A stretch of 64,000 nucleotides of DNA from Bacteroidetes bacterium MED-G21 (GTDB lineage: Bacteria; Bacteroidota; Bacteroidia; Flavobacteriales; UBA7430). Position 1 is the first letter of the stretch; each line of letters begins with the position of its first letter. Made by a program: the position numbers and the translations under genes. Below are positions 3-58,077 of the stretch, one piece after another. Where the stretch lies: assembly GCA_002457305.1 (NCBI GenBank), contig NTKG01000001.1, positions 1,191 to 65,190 of the forward strand, given 5' to 3'. The notes below the pieces were generated by a model that was given only the letters and a program-made list of their open reading frames with translations, made no database searches and was not told where the DNA came from.

Positions 3-2753
3 ATGGAGGATTTAGAGTACATAGATGCAAAGCAAAATGTGGCTAGACAAAATGCAAGATTACAGGGTAAAATAGATTTTAAGCCAACATTGAACACCAA
101 TATTACTTTTGGGGGTAACTTTGCCAGAACTACTTACAGAGATTATATTTATGGTTACAGTTTGTTCAACCCAGGTAACAATCCAGAAACTGAGGAGCAG
201 TCATGGAGAGCTTTTGGGCGTTTTCAACAAAGTTTTGGCGCTTCAGGTGATGAGCAGTCGGCTTCTACTTTAAAAAATGCCTTCTTTACCCTGCAGGCAG
301 ATTATTCGCAGGATACTCAAAGTACATACGATGTTGATCACAGAGATAATCTTTTTAATTATGGTTACATCGGTAAGTTTACCCCTGTTAGAGAATTGGT
401 AGAAAATACGCCAACAGAATGGGAAGGTGATGAGAATACAATAGATATTATTGGTTTAGATGAAAATGGGGTTCCTACACCCAATGACACTCTTTTTGAT
501 GTATTGACCTCTGATGGTGCTGGAGGTACTTTATTTGGACTTACACAGAATTTGATCTCATATTATGATTTTGAAGCTGGAGATTTAAATACAAATGCAT
601 CTAATTACACACAATCATATTACGATTTTATTGGTGCAGAATCCGTAACAACATTAGATCAGATCACAGGAATTGGAGCAGCAGTAAATGGGGACCGTAC
701 CGAGTTTGTTCATTCATTATGGTACAACACTGGTCGTGAATATGATGGTTACTCCAAAGTGAATAATTCCCAGTTTCGTTTTACAGGTATGGCCTCAGCC
801 GATATAAAAGACCATGCTATACAGTTTGGTTTTGAATACGAACAGCGAGATAATAGGTATTATGGTGTTTCTCCTGTTGGTTTATGGACACTCGCAGAGC
901 AAAGGGTTAATAATTATGTTGGCCTTTATGATGGACCATATGAATTCTTAGAGCAAGATGAGGTAACCGGAGAGTATTTGATTACCAGTCAAAACACCTA
1001 CAATTATGATGAGATGTCAAGCTTTGCCATTAATTTTAGAGATCAGCATGGTATAGCTTATGATGAGTTTGTTGACATTCATACTTATAATCCAGATGAT
1101 TTAGATATTGGAATGTTTAGCGCTGATGGTTTATTTAATGGAGGTTCTAGTTTCACAGCTTATTATGGTTATGATTCACAAGGAAATATGCTAGAAGGTG
1201 TTCAGCCAGATATGAATTCATTTTTAACCGAAAAAGATGAGAATGGTAACTACACCAGAAATATAGGTGCTTTCCAACCAATTTATGTAGCAGGTTATAT
1301 TCAAGATAAGTTTGCTTTTGATGACATTATCTTTAATATAGGTGTTCGTGTAGACAGATACGATGCCAATCAAGAAGTCCTAAGAGATCCCTATTCTATT
1401 TATAATGTGATGACAGCAGGTGAGGTTACAGATTTTGGTGCACACCCTTCAAATATCGGTGACGATTATGTTGTTTATGTGGATGATAATACCAATGCAG
1501 GCTTAATAACGGGTTATCGTGATGGTGACAATTGGTATGATGCATCAGGTCTTCCTGTGTCAGACCCTAATGTGTTAAATGTTTCTAAAGGTGTGTTGCC
1601 TATGCTGGCAGATCCAGATGCCTTGTTAAATGGAGACCCATTAAATAAAGGTTTGTCTGCCGATGCTTTTGAGGATTATGAACCAGAAGTTGTTGTAATG
1701 CCTCGTATCTCATTTAACTTCCCAATTTCAGATGAGGCCATGTTCTATGCATATTATGATGTGCTTGCACAACGACCTTCTGCCAACAGAATGAATCCTT
1801 TGGATTACCTTTTCTTGGCTTATAAGGCAGATAATGCTGGTTTACAGAACCCTAACCTAAAGATGCAGAAAACCACCAACTATGAGGTAGGTTTTAAACA
1901 GGCTGTTTCTTCAAGCTCCGCTTTGACCATAAATGCATTTTATAGAGAAATGCGCGATATGATTCAGTATACGAGAGTTGCGTTTGCTTTTCCACAAGAA
2001 TATTTTACATATGGTAATATTGACTTTGGAACTGTTAAAGGATTGTCTCTTGCTTATGAGATGCGCCGAACAAAGAACGTGAGTTTAAATGCCAATTACA
2101 CCATGCAGTTTGCCGATGGATCAGGTTCTTCTGCTACTTCAGGTGCTAATATTGTAACCTCTGAGCAACCTAACCTAAGAACGACTTTACCTTTAGATTA
2201 TGACCAGCGTCACAATTTAACGGCCAGTGTAGATTTTAGATATGGCTCTGGTAAAAATTACAATGGACCACTTTTTAACGGGAAACAAATTCTTGCCAAT
2301 ATGGGTGTAAACCTTGTTGCCACTGCAGGATCTGGAACACCATATAGTCAACAGAAAAATGTAACACGTGAGGCTATGTTTGGAATTAACGATCGCGATT
2401 ACTTGGATGGGAGTATAAACGGTTCGCGCTTGCCATGGACTTACCGTTTAGACATGCGTGTGAATAAGAGCTTCGACCTGACATGGGGCGAAGAAGAAAA
2501 TCAAAAGTCAGCAGCCATGAACGTTTACCTTCAGGTGCAAAACCTTTTGAATACCCAAAATATTGTTAACGTATACCAATATACAGGAAATCCTGATGAC
2601 GATGGATACTTATCAACCGCTGTTGGTATTGGAGATGCGCAGGATCAATTGGATCCGGTTGCATTTACTGATATGTATATGTTGAAACTCAACAGTCCTT
2701 TTAACTATACAAGACCTAGAACAATACGTTTAGGTGTAACACTTGACTTTTAA
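3..2753 (+). CDS. TonB-dependent-receptor-like outer-membrane beta-barrel (C-terminal 916 aa; N-terminus lies upstream of the window)
   Basis: The ORF is open to the window edge and shows no signal peptide or plug at its start. It has Asn/Tyr/Gly-rich alternating strand patterns and ends ...RPRTIRLGVTLDF, with the terminal aromatic residue typical of TBDR/OM barrels. Confidence 0.75.
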   Translation: MEDLEYIDAKQNVARQNARLQGKIDFKPTLNTNITFGGNFARTTYRDYIYGYSLFNPGNNPETEEQSWRAFGRFQQSFGASGDEQSASTLKNAFFTLQADYSQDTQSTYDVDHRDNLFNYGYIGKFTPVRELVENTPTEWEGDENTIDIIGLDENGVPTPNDTLFDVLTSDGAGGTLFGLTQNLISYYDFEAGDLNTNASNYTQSYYDFIGAESVTTLDQITGIGAAVNGDRTEFVHSLWYNTGREYDGYSKVNNSQFRFTGMASADIKDHAIQFGFEYEQRDNRYYGVSPVGLWTLAEQRVNNYVGLYDGPYEFLEQDEVTGEYLITSQNTYNYDEMSSFAINFRDQHGIAYDEFVDIHTYNPDDLDIGMFSADGLFNGGSSFTAYYGYDSQGNMLEGVQPDMNSFLTEKDENGNYTRNIGAFQPIYVAGYIQDKFAFDDIIFNIGVRVDRYDANQEVLRDPYSIYNVMTAGEVTDFGAHPSNIGDDYVVYVDDNTNAGLITGYRDGDNWYDASGLPVSDPNVLNVSKGVLPMLADPDALLNGDPLNKGLSADAFEDYEPEVVVMPRISFNFPISDEAMFYAYYDVLAQRPSANRMNPLDYLFLAYKADNAGLQNPNLKMQKTTNYEVGFKQAVSSSSALTINAFYREMRDMIQYTRVAFAFPQEYFTYGNIDFGTVKGLSLAYEMRRTKNVSLNANYTMQFADGSGSSATSGANIVTSEQPNLRTTLPLDYDQRHNLTASVDFRYGSGKNYNGPLFNGKQILANMGVNLVATAGSGTPYSQQKNVTREAMFGINDRDYLDGSINGSRLPWTYRLDMRVNKSFDLTWGEEENQKSAAMNVYLQVQNLLNTQNIVNVYQYTGNPDDDGYLSTAVGIGDAQDQLDPVAFTDMYMLKLNSPFNYTRPRTIRLGVTLDF

Positions 2754-2776
2754 TCTTAGCAGTAAATCGTATAAAT

Positions 2777-5700
2777 ATGAAAAAAACAGCTAAAAACACA
2801 CTATATATTTTCTTTGCACTATTGACATTTGGATTACAAGCAAAGGAAAATGTAAATCATAATGGTGGCGGCGTAACCAGCCCATTACAAACCTTGGCTT
2901 ATAACTGTGCTGTAGGTACCGCTCAAACCCTGTTGGATATTAACAATGTTAAGACCACTATATTGAATGGTGGTGACATGTGGTGGGACTTGGTAAATGG
3001 CCGCTACGAAATTCCTCAAGGTTCCGGAAAGCATTCTATGTTTGCCGGTGCACTATGGATTGGTGGATATGATGACAACGGTCAGCTTAAGGTTGCAGGG
3101 CAAACGTACCGACAGTCTGGTACTGACTACTGGCCAGGGCCACTAGATAATGTGCGATTAACATCAGAAGGTATAAACAATTCAAAATACGGAAGTACAG
3201 ACGCAACTATTTGTGCACAGTACGATCAGCATTTTGTTATTTTAAGAACTGATGTAGAAGAATTTGTTGCTTGGTCAAATTCTGATAATCCATCTGTTGA
3301 TTATCCAGATTATGTGATTCCTCAGTCCATATTAAATTATCCTGGGAATAGAACTACTGATGATTTGTCTAATGCTAACATGCAAGCTGATTTAGAAATA
3401 GATTCTACTGGATCTTACTTTTATTCACTTGAGTCTTTAGCGCCTTTTGAGGATGTCAATAACGATGGTTTTTATGACCCATTGTCAGGAGATTATCCTC
3501 AATATAATTTAAATGGAACCCTAGGTTGTAGTGACGGTGATATTTTATTTGGTGATCAAACCCTATGGTGGGTCTATAATGACAATGGAAATGTACATAC
3601 AGAGACTCAATCTGAAACCGCCATTGGATTAGAGATACAAGCTCAGGCATTTGCCTTTTCTACCAATGACGAGATCAACAACATGACTTTTTATAACTAC
3701 AAATTAATCAACCGCTCCCACACTCCTCTTAATGACACTTATTTTGGTGTATGGGTTGATCCTGATCTTGGGGATTATCAAGATGATTATGTGGGCTGTG
3801 ATGTGGCGCGTGGTTTGGGGTATTGTTACAATGGTGACGAGGATGATGGAACAGCCGTTGGATATGGTGCGAACCCGCCAGCTATTGGGGTAGACTTCTT
3901 TAGAGGTCCTTTGGCTGATGAGAATGATGGTGTAGATAATAATGGTGATGGTGTGATAGATGAACCTGGAGAGCAGATCATCATGTCCAAGTTTGTTTAT
4001 TACAATAATATTCAAGGTACTGTAGATGGAAATCCAAACATAGCTCAAGATTTTTATAATTACTTAGATGGTAAGTGGCTTGATAATACACTTATGACTT
4101 ATGGTGGCGATGGAAGAGATCAAAATAATCCGGCATGTAACTACATGTTCCCTGGCGATACAGATCCAGCATTCCCTGGTCAAACATGGACCGAGCAAAC
4201 TGCTGGTAATGTGCCTGATGACCGTCGTTTCCTTCAATCAGCTGGTAAATTTACTCTAGCGCCAGGTGCACTTAATATCATTACCACTGGTGTTGTATGG
4301 GCAAGAGCTAATGAAGGTGGCGCATTTGCTTCGGTAGAATTGATGCGTTTGGCCGATGATAAGGCTCAAAAATTATTTGACACCTGTTTTGAGGTGCTTG
4401 ATGGGCCAGATGCGCCATTATTGGCCTTCCAAGAGCTTGATCAGAAAGTGGTGATTACTATTTCAAATGCCGTTTCATCTAACAACTATATGGAGCAATA
4501 TGTAGAGGCAGATGAAGTAAATATTATTGGTTCATATGGAAATGATACTACTGTGGTAGATGATACAACTACAGTAATTACATCCCTTGATTACAGAAAT
4601 GAGTATACCTTTGAAGGCTATCAAATCTTCCAATTGAGGGATGAGACAGTAACTGCTGCTGATGCTTATAATATTGACAAAGCACGCTTGGTATTCCAAT
4701 GTGATGTTAAAAATTACAAAGCTGCTGATGGTTCTATAACAACTCAAGTAACTGATGCACCTATTGCACAGTTAACCAATTTTGAATTCAGCCAAGATCT
4801 TCAAGCAAGTATACCTCAAAACATGACCATTGAGGCTGCTAATGATGGTATCGTTCATTCTTTGGTCTTAACAGACGATTTATTTGCCGCTGGTGATCGT
4901 ACCTTTATAAATAACAAGACATATTATTACACTGCTATTGCTTATGCATATAATGAGTATTTAGAGTATGCACCTGACCAGGTACCAGATCCGGGCGATA
5001 TGTATGCCCCAAGTTTTAATGGACAGAAAAAGCCATATTTGGCAGGACGTAAAAACATCAAACAATATTCGGTTATTCCACATATTACCACTGCCGAGGC
5101 TGGCGGAACCATTCAAAATGCAGATTATGGAACCCTTCCTTCAATGACGCGTATTGAAGGTGTGGGTAATGGCGGCTTAGAGCTGGAATTCTCTGCTGAA
5201 ACCAGAGCGGCAATTATTTCAGATTATTGTGCTGCCCAAACGGTTTATGCTAAAGACGGTGCACCTGTAAATGTTAAGGTTGTTGATCCTTTAAGTGTTC
5301 CTGAGAATACTGACTTTACCTTTAAGATGGACGATGTTGGCGAAGATGCCATGTGGGTTCTTGTTAATAATACCTCTGGAGATAGTATTAGTTCTGAACA
5401 AACTATTTCAGTTAAGAATGAACAAATTATACCTGAGTGGGGTCTTTCTGTAATGGTGCAAGATGCAATGAACCCAGGTGATGAAGGTACAATTTCAACT
5501 TCCTCAAATGGTTTCTTGAGTGCCACAGAAATAAAAGATAATGCGACCTCTTGGCTTAATTATTACAAAGACAATGATGATTTCTTTGAAGGTGGTGACG
5601 CAGTTTATGTTGATCCTGCCAATTGGATTCGTTCAGGTAATGATCCTATAGATCATGCCACTATTGACGATGGTGAAACATATGAGAATATTCTTGCCGG

Positions 5701-6808
5701 TTCGTGGGCTCCATATCGACTGGTTGGTGTTGATGGCCAAGGTACAGCTGCTTTTGAACATTCTGCAGCATGGGATCAGTTCCAATCTTTAAGTGCTTTA
5801 AAAGATGTTCCTTCTGTAGATATTGTATTTACAGATGATAAAGATTTATGGACGCGTGTTCCAGTTATTGAAACTGGATCAGGAACAAATAGGTTAAACT
5901 TAAAACCGAATCCTTCAGTAGGTAAAGATGGGCAGGAAGATGGTTCTGGAACCATTGGATTCTCATGGTTCCCAGGTTATGCTTTAGATCTTGAAAAAGG
6001 TGTTCGATTAAATATGATGTTTGGCGAATCTTCAGATCATGCAGACGAGCATAATGGTGATGATATGTGGTGGAACCCAACATCCGTAGAATCTACTGGT
6101 AACCGTTTTTATGAATTTAATGAAATAGGAGAGCCATTTGATCTAGTTATAGGTGGTCGACACTATGTTTATGTTATGAAGACCCAGTACGCTGGTTCTG
6201 ATGCTACTGCACATAGTGAGTATGATCATCTAACTGGTATGACATCTAATTCAAACAAACGAAGTGTTTTTAGAGAAGCAGCTTGGGTTTCTATACCGAT
6301 GTTATCTTCTTCAAGTGCAGAAGTTTCAGATGGAGATGTTGAGGTTAAAATCCGCGTTTCTAAAGCCTATGATGAATATGTCTCTGATTGCGGTGTTGGT
6401 GAGTTAAATGAACAAAATCCGTATTTAACTTTTAACACTTCTGATATTCAGACTGTAGTTGGTGATGAATCGGCAGCCGAGAGTGCTATGGATCTAATAA
6501 AGGTTGTTCCAAACCCTTATTATGGTTCAAGTAAGTATGAGAGAGATCAAGTAGATCACCGTGTTAAAATTACAAACCTACCTAAAACATGTACCATATC
6601 TATATACAATGTTTCAGGAACTTTAGTGCGTCAAGTAAGCCTTGATAGTGACCAAAATGTAACAGGTTGGGATTGGGATCTGAAAAATAATTACAATGTG
6701 GCCATCTCTTCGGGAGTTTACATTATACATGTTGATGCCGGAGATATTGGACAGAAAGTGTTGAAGTGGTTTGGTGCACTTCGTCCTATAGACTTAGACT
6801 CATTCTAG
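2777..6808 (+). CDS. Large secreted protein (1343 aa) of unknown function with a T9SS type-A-like C-terminal domain
   Basis: Signal peptide MKKTAKNTLYIFFALLTFGLQAKE. Acidic Ca-binding-like DNNGDGVIDEPGE loop. C-terminal ~105 aa (nt 6488-6805) read VVPNPYYG...ISIYNVSGTLVRQV...SSGVYIIHV..., matching the T9SS CTD/FlgD-Ig-like pattern. The gene starts 23 nt after the upstream barrel gene. Confidence 0.8.
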   Translation: MKKTAKNTLYIFFALLTFGLQAKENVNHNGGGVTSPLQTLAYNCAVGTAQTLLDINNVKTTILNGGDMWWDLVNGRYEIPQGSGKHSMFAGALWIGGYDDNGQLKVAGQTYRQSGTDYWPGPLDNVRLTSEGINNSKYGSTDATICAQYDQHFVILRTDVEEFVAWSNSDNPSVDYPDYVIPQSILNYPGNRTTDDLSNANMQADLEIDSTGSYFYSLESLAPFEDVNNDGFYDPLSGDYPQYNLNGTLGCSDGDILFGDQTLWWVYNDNGNVHTETQSETAIGLEIQAQAFAFSTNDEINNMTFYNYKLINRSHTPLNDTYFGVWVDPDLGDYQDDYVGCDVARGLGYCYNGDEDDGTAVGYGANPPAIGVDFFRGPLADENDGVDNNGDGVIDEPGEQIIMSKFVYYNNIQGTVDGNPNIAQDFYNYLDGKWLDNTLMTYGGDGRDQNNPACNYMFPGDTDPAFPGQTWTEQTAGNVPDDRRFLQSAGKFTLAPGALNIITTGVVWARANEGGAFASVELMRLADDKAQKLFDTCFEVLDGPDAPLLAFQELDQKVVITISNAVSSNNYMEQYVEADEVNIIGSYGNDTTVVDDTTTVITSLDYRNEYTFEGYQIFQLRDETVTAADAYNIDKARLVFQCDVKNYKAADGSITTQVTDAPIAQLTNFEFSQDLQASIPQNMTIEAANDGIVHSLVLTDDLFAAGDRTFINNKTYYYTAIAYAYNEYLEYAPDQVPDPGDMYAPSFNGQKKPYLAGRKNIKQYSVIPHITTAEAGGTIQNADYGTLPSMTRIEGVGNGGLELEFSAETRAAIISDYCAAQTVYAKDGAPVNVKVVDPLSVPENTDFTFKMDDVGEDAMWVLVNNTSGDSISSEQTISVKNEQIIPEWGLSVMVQDAMNPGDEGTISTSSNGFLSATEIKDNATSWLNYYKDNDDFFEGGDAVYVDPANWIRSGNDPIDHATIDDGETYENILAGSWAPYRLVGVDGQGTAAFEHSAAWDQFQSLSALKDVPSVDIVFTDDKDLWTRVPVIETGSGTNRLNLKPNPSVGKDGQEDGSGTIGFSWFPGYALDLEKGVRLNMMFGESSDHADEHNGDDMWWNPTSVESTGNRFYEFNEIGEPFDLVIGGRHYVYVMKTQYAGSDATAHSEYDHLTGMTSNSNKRSVFREAAWVSIPMLSSSSAEVSDGDVEVKIRVSKAYDEYVSDCGVGELNEQNPYLTFNTSDIQTVVGDESAAESAMDLIKVVPNPYYGSSKYERDQVDHRVKITNLPKTCTISIYNVSGTLVRQVSLDSDQNVTGWDWDLKNNYNVAISSGVYIIHVDAGDIGQKVLKWFGALRPIDLDSF

Positions 6809-6816
6809 TAGCATAA

Positions 6817-7911
6817 ATGTTAAAGACTAAATTTCATACGACTATGGTTATGAACAAATATACAAAGCATCTGATTCCTGCAATTTTAGCAGGTGTGTTA
6901 ACACTGTATTCTACAAGTGTAATAGCAGGAAACGAACAGCGTTCAGGTCAAGCTGGAGCGACTGAGTTATTAATCAACCCTTGGGCCCGATCATCTGGTT
7001 GGGGTGGTATCAATACAGCCTCAGTTTCAGGCCTCGAAGCAACTTTTATGAATGTTGCAGGTATGGCACATACTCAGAATACAGAGTTGATTTTTTCAAG
7101 TACTTCTTGGCTCTCTGATATCAAGATCAATGCCTTCGGTTTTTCCAAATCATTAGATGATCAAGCAGTACTTGGTCTCTCAGTGATGTCTATGAACTTT
7201 GGAGACATTGAAATTACTACTGAAGATTTACCAGAAGGGACCGGGTCGACTTTTTCGCCATCTTATATGAATATAGGTCTTTCTTATGCCAAGAAGTTTA
7301 CTGATAACATTTCATGTGGTGCAACTGTTCGAATGATTTCTCAATCCATTCCAGATTTAAGCGCTTCTGGTGTTGCATTAGATGCTGGTGTACAATATGT
7401 GTCAGGAGATCAGCGTCAGATTAAGTTTGGTATCTCTTTGAAAAATGTGGGACCTAAAATGCAATTTGCTGGAGATGGTAATGACCTTACCAACACAAAT
7501 TCAAATGCCAATGGCCAAGATTTCCCTATGAGTTATGACATGCGTGTTGATGCATTTGAATTGCCATCCTTATTAAATATAGGTGGTTCTTATGATTTTA
7601 ATTATGGTACAGACCATCGCTTGACTGTTGCAGGGAATTTCACTTCTAACTCTTTTTCTAAAGATCAATTTGGAGCTGGAGCCGAATACGCATATAAGTC
7701 TTACTTCATGTTAAGAGCAGGTTATGTCTATGAAGATGGCATTACAGGTGAGTTTTCTGAAGGAAGAACAACAGCCTTTACAGGTTTAAATTATGGTGTA
7801 TCATTTGAGCTTCCATTAAGCAATGGCACTAATTTTGGTATCGATTACTCTTACAGAGCAGCTAGTCCAATGGCTTCTCCTAACTCAATTGGCGTTAGAA
7901 TTACATTATAG
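6817..7911 (+). CDS. PorV/PorQ-family outer-membrane beta-barrel (T9SS-associated)
   Basis: Signal peptide ...LYSTSVIAGNEQ, then GQAGATELLINPWARSSGWGGINTASVSGLEATFMNVAGMA, the N-terminal signature of the PorV/PorQ (FadL-like) family. The likely true start is MNKY at 6850. The gene sits 8 nt downstream of the CTD protein. Confidence 0.7.
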   Translation: MLKTKFHTTMVMNKYTKHLIPAILAGVLTLYSTSVIAGNEQRSGQAGATELLINPWARSSGWGGINTASVSGLEATFMNVAGMAHTQNTELIFSSTSWLSDIKINAFGFSKSLDDQAVLGLSVMSMNFGDIEITTEDLPEGTGSTFSPSYMNIGLSYAKKFTDNISCGATVRMISQSIPDLSASGVALDAGVQYVSGDQRQIKFGISLKNVGPKMQFAGDGNDLTNTNSNANGQDFPMSYDMRVDAFELPSLLNIGGSYDFNYGTDHRLTVAGNFTSNSFSKDQFGAGAEYAYKSYFMLRAGYVYEDGITGEFSEGRTTAFTGLNYGVSFELPLSNGTNFGIDYSYRAASPMASPNSIGVRITL

Positions 7912-7952
7912 CAAGCGTCTATATTTTAAATAATATTTTATAAATTAGCATA

Positions 7953-7979
7953 AAGAGGACCCCCGGAGGTCTTCTTTTT
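7953..7979 (+). terminator. Intrinsic terminator after the PorV/PorQ-like gene
   Basis: Hairpin GAGGACC-cccgga-GGTCTTC (one G-U pair) followed by TTTTT. Confidence 0.55.
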
Positions 7980-8009
7980 GCTTTATCAAATAAACTAAAT
8001 TATTAGATT

Positions 8010-8483
8010 ATGTCTACAGTTTCATACTATACAGAAGAGGGACTCAAGAAATTGAAAGATGAACTAGAACATTTAAAATTTGTTGAAAGACCAAATATTT
8101 CTCAACAAATTGCTGAGGCAAGAGATAAAGGAGATTTGTCCGAAAATGCTGAATATGATGCTGCTAAGGAGGCACAGGGAATGCTTGAAATGAAAATAGC
8201 TAAGCTTGAGGAAATGTATGCCGGTGCACGTGTTATTGATGAGTCTCAGCTAGATACAGATAAGGTTCTTGCTTTGTCAATTGTGAAAATCAGAAACCTA
8301 AATACAAAAGCAGAAATGACCTTTACTTTAGTCGCTGAAACAGAAGCCGATATAAAAACGGGAAAAATATCTGTTAATTCGCCTATCGGCACAGGGCTAC
8401 TTGGGAAAAAAGTTGGCGAAGTTGCTGAAATAAAAGTGCCTGCAGGTCTTGTAAAATTTGAAATACTAGATATTTCTAGGTAA
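8010..8483 (+). CDS. greA: Transcription elongation factor GreA
   Basis: 157 aa. YYTEEGLKKLKDELEHLK...RDKGDLSENAEYDAAKEAQ coiled-coil plus a C-terminal FKBP-like domain (ISVNSPIGTGLLGKKVGE). Confidence 0.95.
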   Translation: MSTVSYYTEEGLKKLKDELEHLKFVERPNISQQIAEARDKGDLSENAEYDAAKEAQGMLEMKIAKLEEMYAGARVIDESQLDTDKVLALSIVKIRNLNTKAEMTFTLVAETEADIKTGKISVNSPIGTGLLGKKVGEVAEIKVPAGLVKFEILDISR

Positions 8484-8875
8484 TGTCTAGCATTTTTTCA
8501 AAAATAGTTCGAGGAGAAATTCCTTCTTATAAGATTGCTGAAGATGATCAATATCTTGCATTTTTAGATATTTTTCCACTAGCAGTAGGTCATGTTTTAG
8601 TTATTCCCAAGAATGAAACGGATTCTATTTTTGACCTTAATGATCAAGAGTATAAGGGTTTATGGCAGTTTGCTAAAAAAACAGCGAAAGCAATTGAAAA
8701 GACCATACCTTGTAAACGTGTAGGTATTGCAGTTATAGGATTAGAAGTGCCTCATGCACATATTCATTTAATTCCTTTACAGAGTGTAGAAGATATAAAT
8801 TTTTCAAAACCTAAGTTGAAATTAGATTCAGATATGATGAAAGGCATTGCCGAAAAAATTATTTCTGGGTTATAA
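8483..8875 (+). CDS. HIT-family (histidine triad) nucleotide hydrolase
   Basis: IFSKIVRGEIPSYKI N-terminus and the histidine triad HAHIHLIP. Start overlaps the greA stop by 1 nt. Confidence 0.9.
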   Translation: MSSIFSKIVRGEIPSYKIAEDDQYLAFLDIFPLAVGHVLVIPKNETDSIFDLNDQEYKGLWQFAKKTAKAIEKTIPCKRVGIAVIGLEVPHAHIHLIPLQSVEDINFSKPKLKLDSDMMKGIAEKIISGL

Positions 8876-8879
8876 TATG

Positions 8880-9437
8880 TTATCTTTTGTCAATTCTATT
8901 TTCGTTATTCTTGATGAAATTGGCCCACGAACTATAACCTTTTTTTGCTCCCGTCATACCGTTTTGTAATCCATGACAGACCGCTGCAGCAAGTCCATCA
9001 GTAGCGTCAAGATATTTTGGCATTTCTTTTAAATTTAACATTTGCATTAGCATTCCTGCAACCTGTTCCTTAGAAGCACTACCTCTTCCAGTAATTGATT
9101 TTTTAATTTTTAGCGGCGCATACTCAGTTACTGGCACTTCTCTCTGAAGTGCAGCAGCCATTGCAACACCTTGTGCCCGACCTAATTTAAGCATGGATTG
9201 CACATTTTTTCCAAAAAAAGGTGCTTCTAGTGCTACTTCGTCAGGATGATAATGATCAATTATTGCTGACGTTTTATCGAAAATCTTTTGAAGTTTTAAA
9301 TATGGGTCTTTGATTTTATTGAGAAGAAGAACATCCATCATAATCATTTCTAATTTGGCTCCCTTTTTTTTGATAAGCCCAAATCCCATAATCGTTGTTC
9401 CTGGATCTATACCTAATATGATTTTCTCTTGACTCAA
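8880..9437 (-). CDS. ruvC: Holliday junction resolvase RuvC
   Basis: ILGIDPGTTIMGFGLI catalytic N-terminus, 185 aa, RuvC-like length and C-terminal DATDGLAAAVCH motif. Confidence 0.93.
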   Translation of the reverse strand: MSQEKIILGIDPGTTIMGFGLIKKKGAKLEMIMMDVLLLNKIKDPYLKLQKIFDKTSAIIDHYHPDEVALEAPFFGKNVQSMLKLGRAQGVAMAAALQREVPVTEYAPLKIKKSITGRGSASKEQVAGMLMQMLNLKEMPKYLDATDGLAAAVCHGLQNGMTGAKKGYSSWANFIKNNENRIDKR

Positions 9438-9640
9438 TGGGTTTAATTTTAGGAGTTAGTGTTGCAATAAATATACTCTTTGTTGAATAAGATACCTAAT
9501 AAAGAAGATCAGTTAATCTATCTAAGATTTTTGTTTTGCACAATTATTTCTATTCTGATTTTAAATATTTTATTAGCAATAATACACGTTATGATTTAAT
9601 ACTCATATATTTTGTAGTTTTAAGAAATTCTTGAATCGTA

Positions 9641-10684
9641 ATGCATAAAAGGTTTAATATCCCTGTTTTTTTTGCTTTAATTACAATTGCACTGACTTTT
9701 TTTGTTGCTGTATTTGCGTATTATTTGGCACCAGATAGCAGCCCTTATGCCAATGAAATGCATTTGGAGTTAAGTCTGCTAGAACCTCAAACAGAGGTAA
9801 GGTTTATTAAACTTAGAAACGATAATACAACAGACGTTTCATTTTTTCACAGACTTATTTATGGTGAAAAAATTAATTATAGAGCTGTTCCGGTTAATAC
9901 TTTTACGCTTAAGGAAAATGAACTGGAGTATGAACTTTATAACAGCTCTTATATAAAGAAACTTAAGTTTAGTGAGCTAGAAGGAGATACACCAGATGTC
10001 TATAGTTATGTGAGGGTATATCATTTAGGTACGGATAAATACGGAAGAGATCTTTTAAGCAGACTTATGGTGGCTACTCGTATTTCGTTAGCTGTAGGAT
10101 TTATTTCGGTATTTATTTCTTTAGTAATAGGGATTACTTTAGGTTTAATTTCTGGCTATTATGGCTCATGGGTTGATAAGATTATTATGTGGCTTATAAA
10201 TGTCGTTTGGTCCATTCCTACTTTACTAATGGTGATTGCAATAAGCTTGGCTTTAGGTAAAGGTTTTTGGCAAGTTTTTGTTGCTGTTGGACTTACCATG
10301 TGGGTCGAAGTAGCACGTGTTGTAAGAGGTCAGGTTATGAGTTTAAAAAAAATGGAATATATACAGGCTGCTCAAGTTTTGGGTTTTGGAAATATCAGAA
10401 TCATGTTTGCACATATCTTACCAAATATAATGAGCCCAGTTATTGTGATTTCTGCTGCCAACTTTGCTTCGGCAATATTGATGGAAGCAGGTTTAAGCTT
10501 TTTGGGGATTGGTGCACAAGCACCTATTCCCTCATGGGGCTCCATGATAAAAGATCATTATGCTTATATTATTCTAGATAAAGCATATTTAGCTGTAGCC
10601 CCTGGAATGGCAATTATGTTTTTAGTACTTGCATTTATGTTGTTAGGTAACATGCTTCGTGACAGGCTTGATGTGAGAACATAA
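9641..10684 (+). CDS. ABC transporter permease (DppC/OppC-like), no partner genes nearby
   Basis: N-terminal TM, ~110-aa extracytoplasmic insert, then the binding-protein-dependent permease core with the EAA-type loop MEYIQAAQVLGFGNIRIMFAHILPN. Confidence 0.85.
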   Translation: MHKRFNIPVFFALITIALTFFVAVFAYYLAPDSSPYANEMHLELSLLEPQTEVRFIKLRNDNTTDVSFFHRLIYGEKINYRAVPVNTFTLKENELEYELYNSSYIKKLKFSELEGDTPDVYSYVRVYHLGTDKYGRDLLSRLMVATRISLAVGFISVFISLVIGITLGLISGYYGSWVDKIIMWLINVVWSIPTLLMVIAISLALGKGFWQVFVAVGLTMWVEVARVVRGQVMSLKKMEYIQAAQVLGFGNIRIMFAHILPNIMSPVIVISAANFASAILMEAGLSFLGIGAQAPIPSWGSMIKDHYAYIILDKAYLAVAPGMAIMFLVLAFMLLGNMLRDRLDVRT

Positions 10685-10726
10685 TTTATGCTTTTCCCCA
10701 GTTACCTCTTTTTAAATTGTGTTCTA

Positions 10727-12124
10727 TTAGAAAATAAGAAGTCCGCTCACAAAAATAATTCCACCAACCAACATAATTATTAAGGTGTAAGGTAGAATTT
10801 CTTTTGCTTTTAAACCTGTAATTCCAAGCAGAGGCAAAGCCCAAAAAGGTTGAAGCATGTTGGTTAATTGGTCTCCATAAGCGAGTGCCATTACATTTTT
10901 AGAGATGTTTAGACCTAGTTGCTGAGAAGCTTCAATAATAATTGGACCTTGAATAGCCCATTGACCACCACCACTTGGAACAAATACATTTACAATGCCC
11001 GCACTTATAAAAGTGAATATAGGAAAAGTGGTTTCGGTTGAGATACTCACAAAAAAATCTGATAAGGAATGAATCATTCCAGTGTGCTTCATAATCTCCA
11101 TAATACCAAAGTATAAAGGAAATTGAATGAGAATACCAGATGCACCAGAAATAGCTTGGTCTATTGCTTTTAAAAACCGATAGAAATTACCATGAAATAA
11201 AATACCCAGTCCAAGTAAAGAGAAATTGATGAAATTGGGACTAATGAAATTTAGATTAACAGACTCAGGAAGAATTACTGATTTGTAAAAAGCAAAAGAG
11301 AGTATTCCTGCACCTAATATTCCTGCTAATAATTTTGAGTGATCTAATCGTTCTGCACCCATTAATTCAGAAGGTTCAGAATCTATATTCATACTATTTA
11401 GTTGGTAGTCTTTGGCAATGCTTTTTTTACCAATAAAGTACATCATTCCTGGAAGTGTCATCAGTAGTATTATAGATACACTTAAATTCATTGTAGAGAA
11501 AACGGTGTCGGTAAAGCTCAGCATATCAGGTAATTGATCTAGCTGTTCTTTATTGTAAATACCTGTCATTAACGATTGAATATGCCCAGATTCAGCAGCT
11601 TTTACAGGTGCTGATCCCGATATGCCACCATGCCAAACCATTAAGCCAGAATAACCACATGCTCCAATAATTGGATAGTGGAGAGGCCATTTGTTTTGAC
11701 TTGCATTTTCGGCAACTTTTCTTGCAAATATTGCCCCAAATATAAGTCCTAAACCCCAGTTGAATAAACTCACTATTAATGTCAATAGGCACACCCAAAA
11801 TGCTGCACTCGCAGTGTTGTTACAATAAGCGGTCATGTATTGAATACCTTTGTTTATAGGTTGACTAAGTGCCAATACATGTCCTAAAACCAACATAAGC
11901 ATCATTTGCATGGCAAATACCATCAAAGGCGAATTCCAAAGTCCTTGTTCCCAGTATTCAATGATGGTTATACTTCGCGAAACATATCCTAGATCTTTGT
12001 CACCTGTATACACTAAGGCGAGTAATACACTTAAAAAAGTCAGTATTACCGCAATTGTAAATGGACTTGGGAATATTTTTTTAAATATATTTTCAATGTT
12101 GTTCGCAAATTTCATAGCGTTCAT
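10727..12124 (-). CDS. AtoE-like short-chain fatty acid transporter family membrane protein
   Basis: 465-aa polytopic membrane protein. The N-terminus FANNIENIFKKIFPSPFTIAVILT and overall pattern fit the AtoE/TIGR00366 family as I remember it. Confidence 0.75.
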   Translation of the reverse strand: MNAMKFANNIENIFKKIFPSPFTIAVILTFLSVLLALVYTGDKDLGYVSRSITIIEYWEQGLWNSPLMVFAMQMMLMLVLGHVLALSQPINKGIQYMTAYCNNTASAAFWVCLLTLIVSLFNWGLGLIFGAIFARKVAENASQNKWPLHYPIIGACGYSGLMVWHGGISGSAPVKAAESGHIQSLMTGIYNKEQLDQLPDMLSFTDTVFSTMNLSVSIILLMTLPGMMYFIGKKSIAKDYQLNSMNIDSEPSELMGAERLDHSKLLAGILGAGILSFAFYKSVILPESVNLNFISPNFINFSLLGLGILFHGNFYRFLKAIDQAISGASGILIQFPLYFGIMEIMKHTGMIHSLSDFFVSISTETTFPIFTFISAGIVNVFVPSGGGQWAIQGPIIIEASQQLGLNISKNVMALAYGDQLTNMLQPFWALPLLGITGLKAKEILPYTLIIMLVGGIIFVSGLLIF

Positions 12125-12232
12125 GTTTAAACCACTAAAGTATTAAATTTTGTTTCTAAGTACGGCCCCTTTTTTATTTGTATATGTTTTTAACTTTTAT
12201 TCTTCTTCGTATCACATGCGCCTTAATTTATT

Positions 12233-12240
12233 TACATTTG
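12233..12240 (+). promoter_or_regulatory. Bacteroidota -7 box TACATTTG (ruvB)
   Basis: Exact TAnnTTTG match 18 nt upstream of the ruvB ATG. Confidence 0.4.
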
Positions 12241-12258
12241 TTTATATAGTTTGGCTTT

Positions 12259-13281
12259 ATGAATGAACATTTAGATGCTTCTTCAGAAGATTTAGGTTCT
12301 GAAGAAAACGAATTTGAAATTAAACTTCGCCCTGCGGCTTTTGATGACTTTTCTGGTCAACAAAAGGTGGTTGATAATTTAGAGGTTTTTGTTTCTGCGT
12401 CGAATCAAAGAGGTGATGCTTTAGATCATGTACTCTTGCATGGACCTCCAGGTCTTGGTAAGACAACATTAGCAGGTATTGTTGCAAATGAACTTGGTGT
12501 TCAGATGAAAGTGACCTCTGGTCCTGTTTTAGATAAACCGGGCGACCTTGCTGGATTGTTGACAAATCTAGAGGAAAGAGATGTATTGTTTATTGATGAG
12601 ATTCATAGATTATCTCCTGTAGTGGAGGAGTATCTTTATTCTGCAATGGAAGATTTTAAGATTGATATTTTGATTGAGTCTGGCCCAAATGCACGTTCAG
12701 TTCAAATTAATTTAAATCCCTTTACACTTATTGGAGCGACCACTAGGTCTGGTTTGTTAACTGCGCCATTAAGAGCACGTTTTGGTATAAATAGTAGATT
12801 AGAGTATTATAATTCTGATTTGTTGTCTAAAATTGTTGACCGTTCTGCTGGTATATTAAATGTACCTATTGATTTTGATGCTGCTGCTGAAATAGCTGGC
12901 AGAAGTAGAGGTACGCCTCGTATAGCGAATGCATTATTGCGACGCGTTAGAGATTTTGCTCAAATTAAGGGTACAGGACATGTCGATATGTCAATTACTA
13001 ATGTTGCATTAGATGCTCTTAAAGTAGATAAAAAGGGTTTAGATGAGATGGATATTATGATTTTAGAGACGATAATTGATAAGTTTAAGGGTGGTCCTGT
13101 TGGTGTTGGAACCATTGCAACTGCAGTAAGTGAAAAGGCGGCAACTTTAGAGGAGGTTTACGAGCCTTATTTAATTCAAGAAGGTTATATCGTTAGAACA
13201 CAAAGAGGAAGGCTTGCTACAGAGGCAGCTTACAATCATTTAGGTCGCGTGTACAGCGACAAGGGCTTAAATTTGTTTTAA
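12259..13281 (+). CDS. ruvB: Holliday junction DNA helicase RuvB
   Basis: [15 protein letters not shown], Walker [10 protein letters not shown], Walker [28 protein letters not shown] sensor/winged helix. Confidence 0.97.
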
Positions 13282-30195: not shown

Positions 30196-32790
30196 TCATT
30201 CTACAGCATAATTGTACAGGGTACCAGATTCTCCGGCTGTGATGAAATTGATCTTCCCGTCGAGGTTCATATCTTCTGCAATTCCGGTTGTTTTTCCGTA
30301 CATCGGAAAACCTTCTACCATTTCGTTTGGTTCTCTAAAAAGATAGGCTTCAGCTGTTTTGGTATCTGTGATGCTAAGATAATGTTCGTTCTTAATATTA
30401 AAGAGTTTGGCTGCACTTAAGCTTTCATTTTCAAACGAATAAAGAAGATTCATCTGAGGCCCGTTTACTTTTAGGTCTTCACCTTCAATAAGAATGTGAT
30501 GTTGCTTGGTATAGGTGTATTGTATGGTTTGATCAAATTCAAATTGAATGCTGTTGTCGATGCTTCCATCAAAAAGAATGTTTTGTTGTGCGCCTTTTTT
30601 GTCTATAGCAACAATACGTGTTTCTGCTAGGCTTTTACCTTTTACAACTTGGAGTTTGTTGCTTGAGAAGTCTATTTTTTCTTTTACCTTAACACGTGTT
30701 TCGCCACGTCGGTTTAAGATGTTTATCGTTCCGTTTTCTTCAGCCAAAAGGATGTAGTCTCTTCCCCCCACCACAAAGTGTTCTGCCGGGTAAAGGGCCT
30801 TGCTTTTGGTTTGCTTTAATTTCCAACCGTTAATTATTTTTCCATTTTTATCGTACATGTAATGGCGCTTACCACAAGAGAGAAGAATTCTATAGTTGCG
30901 ATTGTTTTCGTAGTCGAAAAGCGATAGCGGCAGGCTTGTGTTTTGTTTTAATGCCATCGGATAAGCGCCCACATCGCGCCCTTTTCGGTCGATTAAAAAC
31001 AGCTTGCTTTTGGTGTTAAACAGCAGCTGAAGTTTGTTGTTTTTGAAGAGGTCTATTTGCCGAATAGATCCAATAACAGCTTCCTGAAGTTTTCTTTTCC
31101 ATAGAATTTCTCCCTCTGAAGAAATGAGGTAAAGGTTCAGGTTTTCATCTTGTACAGCAATTTCCCATTTTTGGGTGTAGTGGTTTTTTACCAAGCTCAT
31201 TTCAGATAGAACAGCTGCTTCCAGTTGTGCTGCCCAAATGGCTCTTGTTTGATTTTCTTTTGAGGCATCGAAATGTAGATAAGCATTTGAGTAGCAATTA
31301 GAACCACTAAGGCTAAATTGCATGGCAAAAGATCGTATTGGACTTAAAGCTTCGGTATACTTTTCTATGAATGTGGCTATATTTTTATGAAGATACTTTT
31401 GAACCAGCTGCCATGATGACTGATTTTGAACGTAAATAAAATAGTTTGAATCGTAGTTAAGTTCGTCAATGCAGTTTTTGAAATCTGTAGAATGACTTAA
31501 AGATTTTTCGGATTTGAAATCATTAATAATACTTTTAAGTAGTGTTGCATCTTCTGCTACCAGCAATTGATTGTTTAGGATGCTGGCATATTCATAGGTC
31601 GCAGTTTCTGGCGTATTACATAAATTGCTTAAGTATTTAAGTTCGCTCCATTTAAAGATCTTTTGCTGTCGGTAGTCAAACATTGAGTCTGCATGTGTTG
31701 TGATGTAATTTTCGACCTGAGCACCTTTTGCGATGTGAAGTATTAAACCCGAATTTAATGCCGTACTATTTTCAACCAAGAACCATGTTATTTCACTGTC
31801 AATCCAGCTTTCAAATTCATCTTTGTGTTCTATTTTTAATAAGCTTAGCTTTTTATCGTACTTGTTTTTTTGATGTTTTTTTACCAAACCATTTATTTGC
31901 TGACGTTGGTATTGTTTAAAGTTTTCGAAGCATTTACTTGTGAAAAGCACAGTGTTTTTTGGAAGTACTGACGTTGCAATAAGGTCATGACCTTCGTTGT
32001 TTTCGAAAAATTGAAGCTCCTGAGCCAGCGAATCAAAACTTAAGCTTAAACCACTAAACAGCATGCCGTTTTTAAATACATCAATATCCCATTGAAACCA
32101 TTCAGCTTGATTTTGAATGTTTGAGTTTTGTAATAAGAGCCCCGTACTAATTTTGTCAAAATTTTTAGAATTTATAAAAAGGTTAAAGTCTTCTTTTTTA
32201 TTTGATGAGTTGTAAATGTTTTCAAAGGACTTGTCTGCGCTTAAATTATTTTCAGTTTTTATTTGTCTGATGGCATCTTGAATGAGAATTTTTTCTGGGC
32301 TTATTAATACAAGTCCCATATGTATGCAATAAAATACGCGATCATTTTCAATATTAACTTCTATGATTGTGCTATTGCTATAAGGGTGTTCTTTTGTGTT
32401 TGCAAAGTTTTTAAGTCCTATTTCAAGAAGTTGAAATTTGTGTTCTTGATCTTCTGAAGAGGTCGTTGCAAGCCAATTTATAGATTGAGCACCAGTTAAA
32501 TGTAGTGAGATGAATAAGGGATTGATACTCGTTAAGTGCGATGCATATGTTGTAAGAGCAGAGTCTATTCTTAAAAGCTTTTGCTGATTTAATTCTATTG
32601 AAGTTTCTGTTGTTAATAGACCCCATGGTGCGCTTTTCGAAAGTTCTTTTAAACTTTTTGATACATCATTTGTTTCTAAAATTAAAGCTGCGTCAATTGG
32701 AATCGCATCTAGTGCGTTGCTTGTCTGTTGCTTGTCTTCTTGACAGGCAAAAAAAGAAATAACGATTAATAAGTATAATGCCCTTTGCAT
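30196..32790 (-). CDS. Large lipoprotein (864 aa), unknown function, C-terminal beta-propeller-like repeats
   Basis: Lipobox VISFFAC. The C-terminal third has repeated ...L(Y/F)LI(S/D)..G..(L/V).. units reminiscent of PQQ/BamB-like blades. I recognise no enzymatic motif. Confidence 0.75.
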   Translation of the reverse strand: MQRALYLLIVISFFACQEDKQQTSNALDAIPIDAALILETNDVSKSLKELSKSAPWGLLTTETSIELNQQKLLRIDSALTTYASHLTSINPLFISLHLTGAQSINWLATTSSEDQEHKFQLLEIGLKNFANTKEHPYSNSTIIEVNIENDRVFYCIHMGLVLISPEKILIQDAIRQIKTENNLSADKSFENIYNSSNKKEDFNLFINSKNFDKISTGLLLQNSNIQNQAEWFQWDIDVFKNGMLFSGLSLSFDSLAQELQFFENNEGHDLIATSVLPKNTVLFTSKCFENFKQYQRQQINGLVKKHQKNKYDKKLSLLKIEHKDEFESWIDSEITWFLVENSTALNSGLILHIAKGAQVENYITTHADSMFDYRQQKIFKWSELKYLSNLCNTPETATYEYASILNNQLLVAEDATLLKSIINDFKSEKSLSHSTDFKNCIDELNYDSNYFIYVQNQSSWQLVQKYLHKNIATFIEKYTEALSPIRSFAMQFSLSGSNCYSNAYLHFDASKENQTRAIWAAQLEAAVLSEMSLVKNHYTQKWEIAVQDENLNLYLISSEGEILWKRKLQEAVIGSIRQIDLFKNNKLQLLFNTKSKLFLIDRKGRDVGAYPMALKQNTSLPLSLFDYENNRNYRILLSCGKRHYMYDKNGKIINGWKLKQTKSKALYPAEHFVVGGRDYILLAEENGTINILNRRGETRVKVKEKIDFSSNKLQVVKGKSLAETRIVAIDKKGAQQNILFDGSIDNSIQFEFDQTIQYTYTKQHHILIEGEDLKVNGPQMNLLYSFENESLSAAKLFNIKNEHYLSITDTKTAEAYLFREPNEMVEGFPMYGKTTGIAEDMNLDGKINFITAGESGTLYNYAVE

Positions 32791-56883: not shown

Positions 56884-56945
56884 TTTAGGGCTTATTATTG
56901 TATGCCAATGAATCAGTATATTTATGTTTGTCAGAGTTATTATGG

Positions 56946-56953
56946 TATTTTTG
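56946..56953 (+). promoter_or_regulatory. -7 box TATTTTTG for the PI-PLC-like gene
   Basis: Exact TAnnTTTG 11 nt upstream of ATG 56965. This argues against the longer ORF-track start at 56902. Confidence 0.35.
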
Positions 56954-56964
56954 TTTTCATTTTT

Positions 56965-58077
56965 ATGAGATTTTTTCTTTACATATTAAATATTCTATTA
57001 TTTGTAATTATTACACCAGCTAATTCACAGTGTAATGGTGATGAGTCTTTGTGCTTAAAAAAATATAATGAGGTTGCTTATTTAACTACTCACAATGCAT
57101 ATAGCTCTTTTGAGGACGAATTTTATTTACCAAATCAAAATTTGAACATTACATCTCAATTAAATGATGGTGTTAGAGCTTTTATGTTGGATGTCTATTC
57201 TGAGGACGGTGTGTTGGTCTTATACCATGGTACTGATCAATTGGGCTCTTCACTTTTTGTGGATGTGTTAAATGAATTCAAAACTTTTATTAATGAAAAT
57301 TCTAATGAAGTTATTACACTTATATTAGAAGATTATGGCTCTATTATTGAATTAAGTGATGCCTTATTTATTTCAGGAATAGTTGAAGATCTTTATACAT
57401 ATGATGAAGTAATAGGCTGGCCTACTCTTCAAGAGATGATTGATCTTGATCGTAGAATTGTATTGTTTTCTGATAATGTAGTTTCAAATCCACCTTCATG
57501 GTTTAATTTCATCTGGGATCATGCTGTTGAAACTCATTTTAATAATGTATCAATTGATGATTTTTCCTGTGATTTTAATAGAGGCGATTCCCAGAATGAT
57601 TTATTTATATTGAATCATTTTATAACCAATTTTGAGTTGGTTCTTTTCAATTTAGAACTCTACAATGAACAAGTTGAACAAGTAAATTCTAACCCTTATT
57701 TCATAGGTCATGTTTACGATTGCGCATCAGAAAAAGATAAATTTCCAAATTTTATAACAGTTGATTTTTATGATGTTGGGGACTGTTTAGAGGTGGTAAA
57801 TATTTTGAATGAAATTACTCAGGTAAGCACAAATGATATAACATTCCGAAACATAATATTTCCCAATCCTAGTAAGGGTATTATTCATTTAAATATTCCA
57901 GATGTAGGTACGTCATCAACTATAAGAATTACAAATATTCAAGGAGAAGAAATCAAATGGCGGGGTATTTTGGAAAGAACATATAATGGTGTCAGAATTG
58001 ATTTATCATCTATAAATAAGGGATACTATTTTTTACACATTGGAGATTATGTCTCTCCAGTTTTACTAATAGATTAA
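56965..58077 (+). CDS. Secreted PI-PLC X-domain-like phosphodiesterase with T9SS type-A C-terminal domain
   Basis: Signal peptide MRFFLYILNILLFVIITPANSQ. YNEVAYLTTHNAYSS...GVRAFMLDVY...VLYHG matches the PLC-like TIM-barrel pattern. The last ~75 aa read IIFPNPSKGIIHLNI...IRITNIQGEEI...INKGYYFLHI. Confidence 0.75.
   Translation: MRFFLYILNILLFVIITPANSQCNGDESLCLKKYNEVAYLTTHNAYSSFEDEFYLPNQNLNITSQLNDGVRAFMLDVYSEDGVLVLYHGTDQLGSSLFVDVLNEFKTFINENSNEVITLILEDYGSIIELSDALFISGIVEDLYTYDEVIGWPTLQEMIDLDRRIVLFSDNVVSNPPSWFNFIWDHAVETHFNNVSIDDFSCDFNRGDSQNDLFILNHFITNFELVLFNLELYNEQVEQVNSNPYFIGHVYDCASEKDKFPNFITVDFYDVGDCLEVVNILNEITQVSTNDITFRNIIFPNPSKGIIHLNIPDVGTSSTIRITNIQGEEIKWRGILERTYNGVRIDLSSINKGYYFLHIGDYVSPVLLID

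Follow-up and report, generated by a model that had tools for sequence, protein, structure and literature searches.

A conserved three-gene outer-membrane operon of Bacteroidota encoding a TonB-dependent receptor, a secreted protein with a T9SS type-A C-terminal domain and a PorV/PorQ-family barrel

Bacteroidota are dominant in polymer turnover in oceans, soils and guts and, to our knowledge, their outer-membrane uptake machines (SusCD, utilisomes and BtuBG) are all understood as a transporter working together with lipoproteins. The present analysis concerns a locus at the start of a 64,000-nucleotide stretch of Bacteroidetes bacterium MED-G21 DNA (NCBI GenBank assembly GCA_002457305.1, contig NTKG01000001.1, positions 1,191 to 65,190 of the forward strand), which is referred to as a whole as the window. 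The locus comprises the 3' part of a gene for a TonB-dependent receptor, a gene for a secreted protein of 1343 aa, named MID here, and a gene for an outer-membrane barrel of 364 aa. The parts of this trio are of known kinds; the combination, and the anchoring principle that it implies, are new. The trio is tentatively read here as a TonB-dependent transporter with a partner that would be delivered via the T9SS (type IX secretion system) and held by a dedicated barrel, with no lipid anchor, a reading that we regard as plausible and hold with slightly less than even confidence. An earlier interpretation made from the DNA letters alone (the sequence-only reading) knew of no functional description of the trio, and none was found for the trio or the MID family by full-text search of the literature.

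The closest described relatives of the MID-barrel pair are PorZ-PorQ and PorU-PorV of Porphyromonas gingivalis, in which a large surface protein with a type-A C-terminal domain (CTD) is likewise paired with a barrel of the PorV/PorQ family. PorU and PorZ retain their CTDs, PorV serving as the anchor of the former and PorQ as that of the latter (PMC10202324; PMC12365241), and it has been proposed that cognate PorV-like barrels shield CTDs from cleavage (review PMC10202324). The gene order of porU-porV, CTD protein then barrel, is also that of the trio (PG0026/PG0027; Fjoh_1556/Fjoh_1555). The trio pair differs from both in being linked to a TonB-dependent receptor, in the extra conserved 10-residue tail of MID, in a barrel that fails both equivalog cut-offs, and in a MID body unrelated to the β-propellers of PorZ or the C25-type sortase of PorU. 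SprB and SprF, which combine a type-B CTD with a PorP/SprF-like barrel (PMC9143113), share with the trio the logic of an adjacent dedicated barrel that anchors its own large surface protein without anionic lipopolysaccharide (A-LPS), whereas in the trio the CTD is of type A by TIGR04183 and predicted fold, the barrel is of the PorV/PorQ family and a TonB-dependent receptor is included.

On the transporter side, SusC/SusD and the other systems with lipoprotein lids (BtuG-BtuB, XusB, DUF4249) resemble the trio in that the gene for a transporter bearing a SusC-style N-terminal extension lies directly 5' of that for its surface partner, and in that the association with the transporter is conserved across families. 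Bacteroidota transporters that are not of the SusC type commonly need surface partners encoded adjacently, and the lids discussed by Price et al. are all lipoproteins (bioRxiv 10.1101/2023.03.17.533168). The trio differs in that its receptor falls outside SusC/RagA, its partner is a predicted T9SS substrate of 1343 aa and not a lipoprotein, and its third gene is the proposed anchor. PorF (PG0534/Fjoh_0118) is similar to the trio receptor as a plug-containing barrel of the TonB-receptor type tied to the T9SS, and the phenotype of its mutant groups with those of porQ and porZ mutants (PMC12704123). PorF measures ~92 kDa against ~137 kDa for the trio receptor (an estimate from ~1240 residues) and, unlike the latter with its neighbours, is not reported beside porZ or porQ, which have separate locus tags.

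Conservation of the operon, its receptor and its barrel

The three genes form one outer-membrane operon on the plus strand, with the receptor at 3..2753 (916 codons and a stop, the 5' end lying beyond the start of the window), MID at 2777..6808 and the FadL-like barrel at 6817..7911. The intergenic gaps are 23 nt between receptor and MID and 8 nt between MID and barrel. The barrel gene may truly start at Met10 (6844), because many barrel orthologues have 353-355 aa; the second gap would then be ~35 nt, in agreement with other trio loci, where the median gaps are 31 and 35 nt. An intrinsic-terminator-like hairpin with a T-run at 7952..7987 (plus strand; 10-bp stem at 7952-7977) marks the end of the operon.

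Species representatives (one genome per species) were scanned for MID relatives, giving at least 597 loci, and all open reading frames (ORFs) of the best 80 MID-anchored loci were searched with the three window proteins. Receptor, MID and barrel were found in the same order and on the same strand in 67 of the 80 loci, all from different species, two further loci (L013 and L026) being interrupted by contig ends. The remaining 11 contain solitary MID paralogues, around which no conserved neighbours were found beyond local synteny. Anchoring the search on the receptor (P0469 and P0492; loci L081 and L083) or on the barrel (P0306 and P0384; loci L082 and L084) recovered the trio in four cases out of four. 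The records of the 80 loci include Cryomorphaceae, Crocinitomicaceae, Schleiferiaceae, Salibacteraceae, Parvicellaceae, Weeksellaceae, Lentimicrobiaceae, many labelled 'Bacteroidales', and others. Chance adjacency is effectively excluded by the number of full trios, the reciprocal look-ups and the tight spacing across several orders, and the same evidence makes it very unlikely that the three genes are neighbours with no shared function.

Directly 3' of the trio, greA is present in 54 of the 80 loci and a HIT gene in 53, with ruvC following in 31, in several Bacteroidota orders. Because these genes recur in that position, the trio is taken to be long-standing and vertically inherited within a housekeeping neighbourhood. 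A fourth conserved gene was not found in the 80 loci, only the housekeeping genes greA, HIT and ruvC coming next. Such positional conservation is unusually deep for an outer-membrane operon.

The receptor fragment in the window matches the 22-strand-type barrel domain PF00593 (57.3 bits against a cut-off of 27). Since an orthologue 95% identical to it (P0389) has 1240 aa, ~324 N-terminal residues of the window receptor lie outside the window. In full-length orthologues of ~1210-1260 aa, the signal peptide is followed by a CarboxypepD_reg N-terminal extension, then by a plug and a very large barrel; the orthologue at L001:4153-7887 carries PF13620, PF07715 and PF00593 (Plug 42.4 bits against 23.9), and a candidate TonB-box-like motif, EVELIEYVVPLID, was read from the sequence of a receptor orthologue upstream of the plug. 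The receptor family profile matches the plug of Cir, the colicin I receptor (E 6.5e-11), as well as the plugs of FoxA, CntO and PirA and isolated N-terminal-extension domains of a SusC homologue; PDB searches returned no close solved relative. The SusC/RagA signature (TIGR04056) was not detected in the full-length orthologue at E ≤ 0.01. Taken together with its full-length orthologues, the receptor is classed as a genuine but divergent TonB-dependent transporter outside the SusC/RagA family. A SusC-type receptor with a SusD partner was rejected, there being no SusC/RagA match and the downstream gene having neither a SusD domain nor a lipobox.

A transporter of this build might also work outwards. 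Oar of Myxococcus xanthus, a TonB-dependent transporter with the same type of N-terminal domain (CarboxypepD_reg) as the trio receptor, is reported to be needed for protein secretion, in this case of the protease PopC (PMC6434023). MID, in turn, already carries a T9SS export signal, and we consider it very improbable that the receptor acts in this manner or that the three genes are unrelated neighbours.

The barrel matches the PorV/PorQ family model NF033709 with 157.9 bits against a cut-off of 90 (residues 47-362). Its scores fall far short of the cut-offs of the PorV equivalog NF033710 (84.4 against 250), the PorQ equivalog NF033711 (88.4 against 220, the N-terminal half alone aligning) and the PorV2 model (46.7 against 325), and a comparison with the solved PorV of F. 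johnsoniae (6h3i_F) gave 30.6 bits (E 1.9e-6). The homologues listed, which bear the name 'PorV/PorQ family protein', come from across the phylum and for the most part share 50-58% identity with the barrel. The Pfam family PorP_SprF was not matched by the window barrel; PF11751 appears for some orthologues in the precomputed Pfam column. By these scores the barrel belongs to an orthologous group of its own, distinct from both PorV and PorQ. Neither the window nor the flanks of the 80 loci contained any other PorV-family gene. A canonical porU-porV pair was rejected, as MID is devoid of a C25 peptidase domain and the barrel lies far under the PorV cut-off.

These results bear out the observation made from the letters alone and part of its interpretation; none of the three outcomes named there as refuting it was seen. 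The same-strand arrangement with gaps of 23 and 8 nt agrees with the ORF coordinates, and the terminator is present with its T-run, its hairpin lying at 7952-7977 in place of 7953-7979. The synteny of the trio, on which the proposal had been made to depend, is conserved in the fetched loci and in the reciprocal look-ups; by the equivalog scores, the barrel of 364 aa is neither PorV nor PorQ of the canonical kind; and the distinction from SusC/SusD is upheld by the absence of a SusC/RagA match in the orthologue and of a SusD domain or lipobox in MID. The plug and carboxypeptidase-like domains to be looked for in the missing part of the receptor gene are found in orthologues, the window gene's own 5' part being outside the window.

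The C-terminal domain and tail of MID

MID starts with a predicted Sec signal peptide of the SPI type (aa 1-22, 2777..2842, plus strand), read by eye as MKKTAKNTLYIFFALLTFGLQA followed by KEN. No lipobox was found in MID, its first Cys being at aa 44, well past the hydrophobic core, and because of this a lipoprotein-lid identity was rejected. At the other end of the protein, hidden Markov models and an AlphaFold2 (AF2) model place a T9SS type-A CTD of a PorZ/PorU-like subclass at aa ~1242-1333 (6500..6775, plus strand), followed by the tail ALRPIDLDSF at aa 1334-1343 (6776..6805, plus strand), a conserved hallmark of the family.

When searched alone, the window CTD scored 28.8 bits on the PorZ model (positions 666-746 of 757), 26.8 on TIGR04183 and 22.1 on the PorU model. 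All 17 MID-family CTDs tested matched the CTD segment of the PorZ model (best E 5.3e-11), TIGR04183 and the CTD segment of the PorU model. Eleven ordinary type-A CTDs, one from the window and 10 from the fetched loci, served as controls and gave 33-61 bits on TIGR04183 together with matches to cargo CTDs such as those of M36 and TapA; the PorZ model was matched by two of the 11 (≤18.6 bits) and the PorU model by three. An hhalign comparison of the CTD family with one in-genome cargo CTD returned a probability of 10.7% and a misregistered alignment of 21 columns. The control from the window belongs to a protein of 391 aa (56902-58077, plus strand; TIGR04183 33.8 bits), the ordinary type-A CTD of which indicates that the host carries regular T9SS cargo.

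The AF2 model of the last 119 residues of MID (predicted TM-score, pTM, 0.72) shows a seven-strand sandwich and then coil for the final ten residues, the tail being modelled with low confidence (pLDDT ~55). In the PDB it matches PorZ 5m11 best (E 9.5e-6, query TM-score, TMq, 0.61, 24% identity); the next T9SS proteins, lower in the list, are the translocon-bound CTD of NucA (8glk_D) and PorU (6za2). The type-A hallmarks are present in the form of PNP (V-P-N-P), G-x-Y and a C-terminal Lys, with no variation in V-P-N-P, Y and K; this Lys, close to the end of the CTD, contacts PorV in translocon structures, and its importance is stated in PMC10994853. On profile and modelled-fold grounds, the MID CTD is classed as a genuine T9SS type-A domain and as nearest, in sequence and predicted fold, to the CTDs of PorZ and PorU. 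MID itself was rejected as PorZ, since only its CTD matches NF052228 (28.8 bits against a cut-off of 260) and the model of its body does not match 5m11, and as the PorU sortase, since the match to NF033707 is confined to the CTD part (22.1 against 420), with no Peptidase_C25 and no body match to gingipain or PorU.

The end of MID follows the pattern KWFG-x-x-RP-x-D-L-[DN]-x-[FY], which is strictly kept in 52 of the 68 trio-encoded MID copies; the final residue is F or Y in 66 of them. The last 30 residues show a mean pairwise identity of 66%, as high as that of the protein core, compared to 52% for the body, a degree of constraint that would not be expected of a generic, disposable secretion signal. 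The sequence-only reading had described a type-A-like CTD followed by 12 extra residues ending in Phe; the CTD and the Phe are there, and the extension amounts to ~10 residues after the last predicted strand. Five of the solitary MID paralogues (L043, L052, L059, L066 and L070) have degenerate tails, the final residue being L, I or Y and KWFG..RP being missing. Four of these (L043, L059, L066 and L070) are Crocinitomicaceae/Fluviicola records and L052 is labelled Bacteroidetes bacterium only. Co-evolution of the tail with the barrel would lead one to expect such degeneration in solitary copies.

These data bear directly on whether MID might be an ordinary, cleaved T9SS cargo, that is, a secreted or A-LPS-anchored enzyme or adhesin, with the barrel as a private export shuttle, the receptor importing what MID releases, and no stable tethered complex. 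Scanned on its own, the MID CTD scores above the cut-off of the generic type-A model, and the conserved Lys is present. PorV is a known shuttle from which cargo is released (PMC10994853), and gene linkage by itself fits a stable complex and a functional pathway alike. The CTD and tail, however, are among the most conserved parts of MID, the CTD is closer to retained CTDs than to those of cargo, and a generic signal would have no need of a dedicated barrel more than 50% identical across the phylum. Cleaved cargo is regarded as a distinctly unlikely account of the locus.

A proposed surface assembly

The reading favoured here, in which the three genes build one outer-membrane assembly, would proceed as follows. 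MID would cross the inner membrane through the Sec route and the outer one through the T9SS, the latter step being suggested by its type-A CTD. Unlike in ordinary cargo, the CTD would probably remain uncleaved and, together with the 10-residue tail, would probably dock MID permanently on the extracellular loops of the barrel, paralleling PorZ on PorQ and PorU on PorV. MID would then be positioned on the cell surface, next to or above the transporter, as a capture or processing partner, in a lid role like that of SusD or BtuG. Retention of the CTD, its binding to the barrel, contact between MID and the transporter and the direction of import are all inferred. The sequence-only reading had likewise pictured a cargo/shuttle pair coupled to a TonB-energised barrel; this picture gains from the PorZ/PorU-like nature of the CTD and the constraint on the C-terminus, while its retention, barrel binding and joint uptake stand as presumed steps.

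The body of MID is β-rich and multidomain, and offers few clues to what might be captured. No catalytic family was found in MID by Pfam or NCBIfam, and neither a known enzyme nor a solved relative by Pfam, NCBIfam, PDB sequence and profile searches or Foldseek; the PDB sequence and profile searches returned only the CTD of PorZ (E 0.21). The signal peptide and the absence of a catalytic motif had both been noted from the letters alone. A match of MID to an enzyme family would have spoken against the earlier proposal; neither a known family of this kind nor a solved structure was matched. The AF2 model of aa 30-1229 (pLDDT 78.4, pTM 0.62) gave weak local matches in the PDB by Foldseek (best E 2e-4, TMq ≤ 0.15), namely to β-supersandwich domains of the kind present alongside GH116, GH94, GH63 and related enzymes (glycoside hydrolases and phosphorylases). 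A β-supersandwich domain, as modelled, is a weak hint at glycans as the substrate. Conservation is highest in the N-terminal half (63-65% mean pairwise identity at alignment columns 300-600), where many invariant Asp, Asn and Gly residues and a DxDxDG-like loop suggest putative calcium sites.

The strongest rival treats the trio as an accessory module of the T9SS that parallels PorF, PorZ and PorQ of P. gingivalis. In such a module, MID, seated on its PorQ-like barrel, would deal with a glycolipid or glycan anchor used to attach T9SS cargo, and the receptor would serve the attachment pathway rather than nutrient uptake. The best match of the window CTD, in sequence and in modelled fold, is PorZ, the barrel scores slightly higher on the PorQ than on the PorV model, and PorF, a protein with a TonB-receptor plug domain, is required for the T9SS and its mutant groups with those of porQ and porZ (PMC12704123; PMC5445135). 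The deep conservation of the trio among housekeeping genes would also be expected of core envelope machinery. Against this, the similarity to PorZ is limited to the CTD, Foldseek against the PDB finding no resemblance of the MID body to the PorZ β-propellers, PorU or gingipain and the sequence searches none either, and the barrel remains under the PorQ equivalog cut-off. Several MID paralogues per genome would be unusual for a part of a core machine. In F. johnsoniae the orthologues of PorZ, PorQ and PorF have separate, non-adjacent locus tags, so that the trio would be an additional paralogous system. We consider such a module unlikely; the sequence-only reading did not take PorF into account.

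A number of observations weigh against a surface uptake assembly. The composition of the trio mirrors PorF/PorZ/PorQ and in this respect points to a T9SS accessory role. The trio lies amid housekeeping genes (ahcY, greA, HIT and ruvC), unlike typical nutrient-uptake loci, and no regulator, inner-membrane transporter or catabolic genes were found around the locus. Seven orthologous loci were searched for riboswitches or other Rfam elements upstream of the trio, and tRNAs only were found. The similarity of the CTD to PorZ and PorU is modest in bits; for the whole protein, TIGR04183 falls just below its cut-off (22.9 bits against 23) and the PorZ model is not reported at E ≤ 0.01. The weak supersandwich matches are the one clue to function in the body of MID.

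On balance, and a shade more tentatively than the assembly itself, we propose that the trio may represent a phylum-wide TonB-dependent surface machine, the T9SS-exported partner of which would be held non-covalently, through an uncleaved PorZ-like CTD and its tail, on a private PorV/PorQ-type barrel. Lipid anchors and A-LPS linkage would thereby be joined by a third principle of anchoring. If correct, it would provide a new architecture, a transporter with a T9SS-delivered protein on its own barrel, and the first genomic evidence that a retained-CTD protein forms one functional unit with two barrels, one TonB-receptor-like and the other PorQ-like. It would join T9SS and TonB-dependent transport, two signature systems of Bacteroidota, in one operon and could explain the grouping of PorF, PorZ and PorQ phenotypes in P. 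gingivalis. The trio also supplies a concrete example on which the proposed protection and retention of CTDs by cognate PorV-like barrels could be examined.

Paralogues of MID and neighbouring genes

MID homologues number more than 6700 among 8000 scored candidates, and an exhaustive search of 50%-identity representatives gave 7557 relatives at E ≤ 1e-3, 2227 of them at E ≤ 1e-30. With ~7500 clusters at 50% identity, MID ranks among the larger protein families without any domain annotation. A second MID copy follows the barrel immediately in L004, L039, L073 and L077 and lies a little farther downstream in L047 and L064, and in L082 an unannotated gene for 1274 aa comes immediately after the barrel. 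The second copies keep the C-terminal tail where their C-terminus is in the fetched sequence; it is absent in L077. One trio (L012) and one solitary MID (L019) come from the same assembled genome. The arrangement in loci with a second copy suggests that two surface proteins use one barrel and one receptor. Extra copies either adjoin a single receptor and a single barrel or lie elsewhere in the genome, which fits a variable surface component on a common anchor and transporter.

Downstream of the trio, the window contains greA, a HIT gene and ruvC (minus strand) at 8010-9437, followed by housekeeping and metabolic genes such as ruvB. Two further proteins, of 864 aa (30196-32790, minus strand) and 508 aa (61861-63387, minus strand), had no NCBIfam match at E ≤ 1e-5. 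A protein of 1208 aa (58193-61819, plus strand) matches SdrC/SdrD-type adhesin repeats only, with no CTD in its last 110 residues. The closest of the fetched loci, L003 of Cryomorphaceae bacterium CM1_5m.P23, is 94% identical to the window. At 4038-12814 of this locus, the receptor, MID and barrel genes are each split into several ORFs, which most likely reflects assembly frameshifts and not real pseudogenes.

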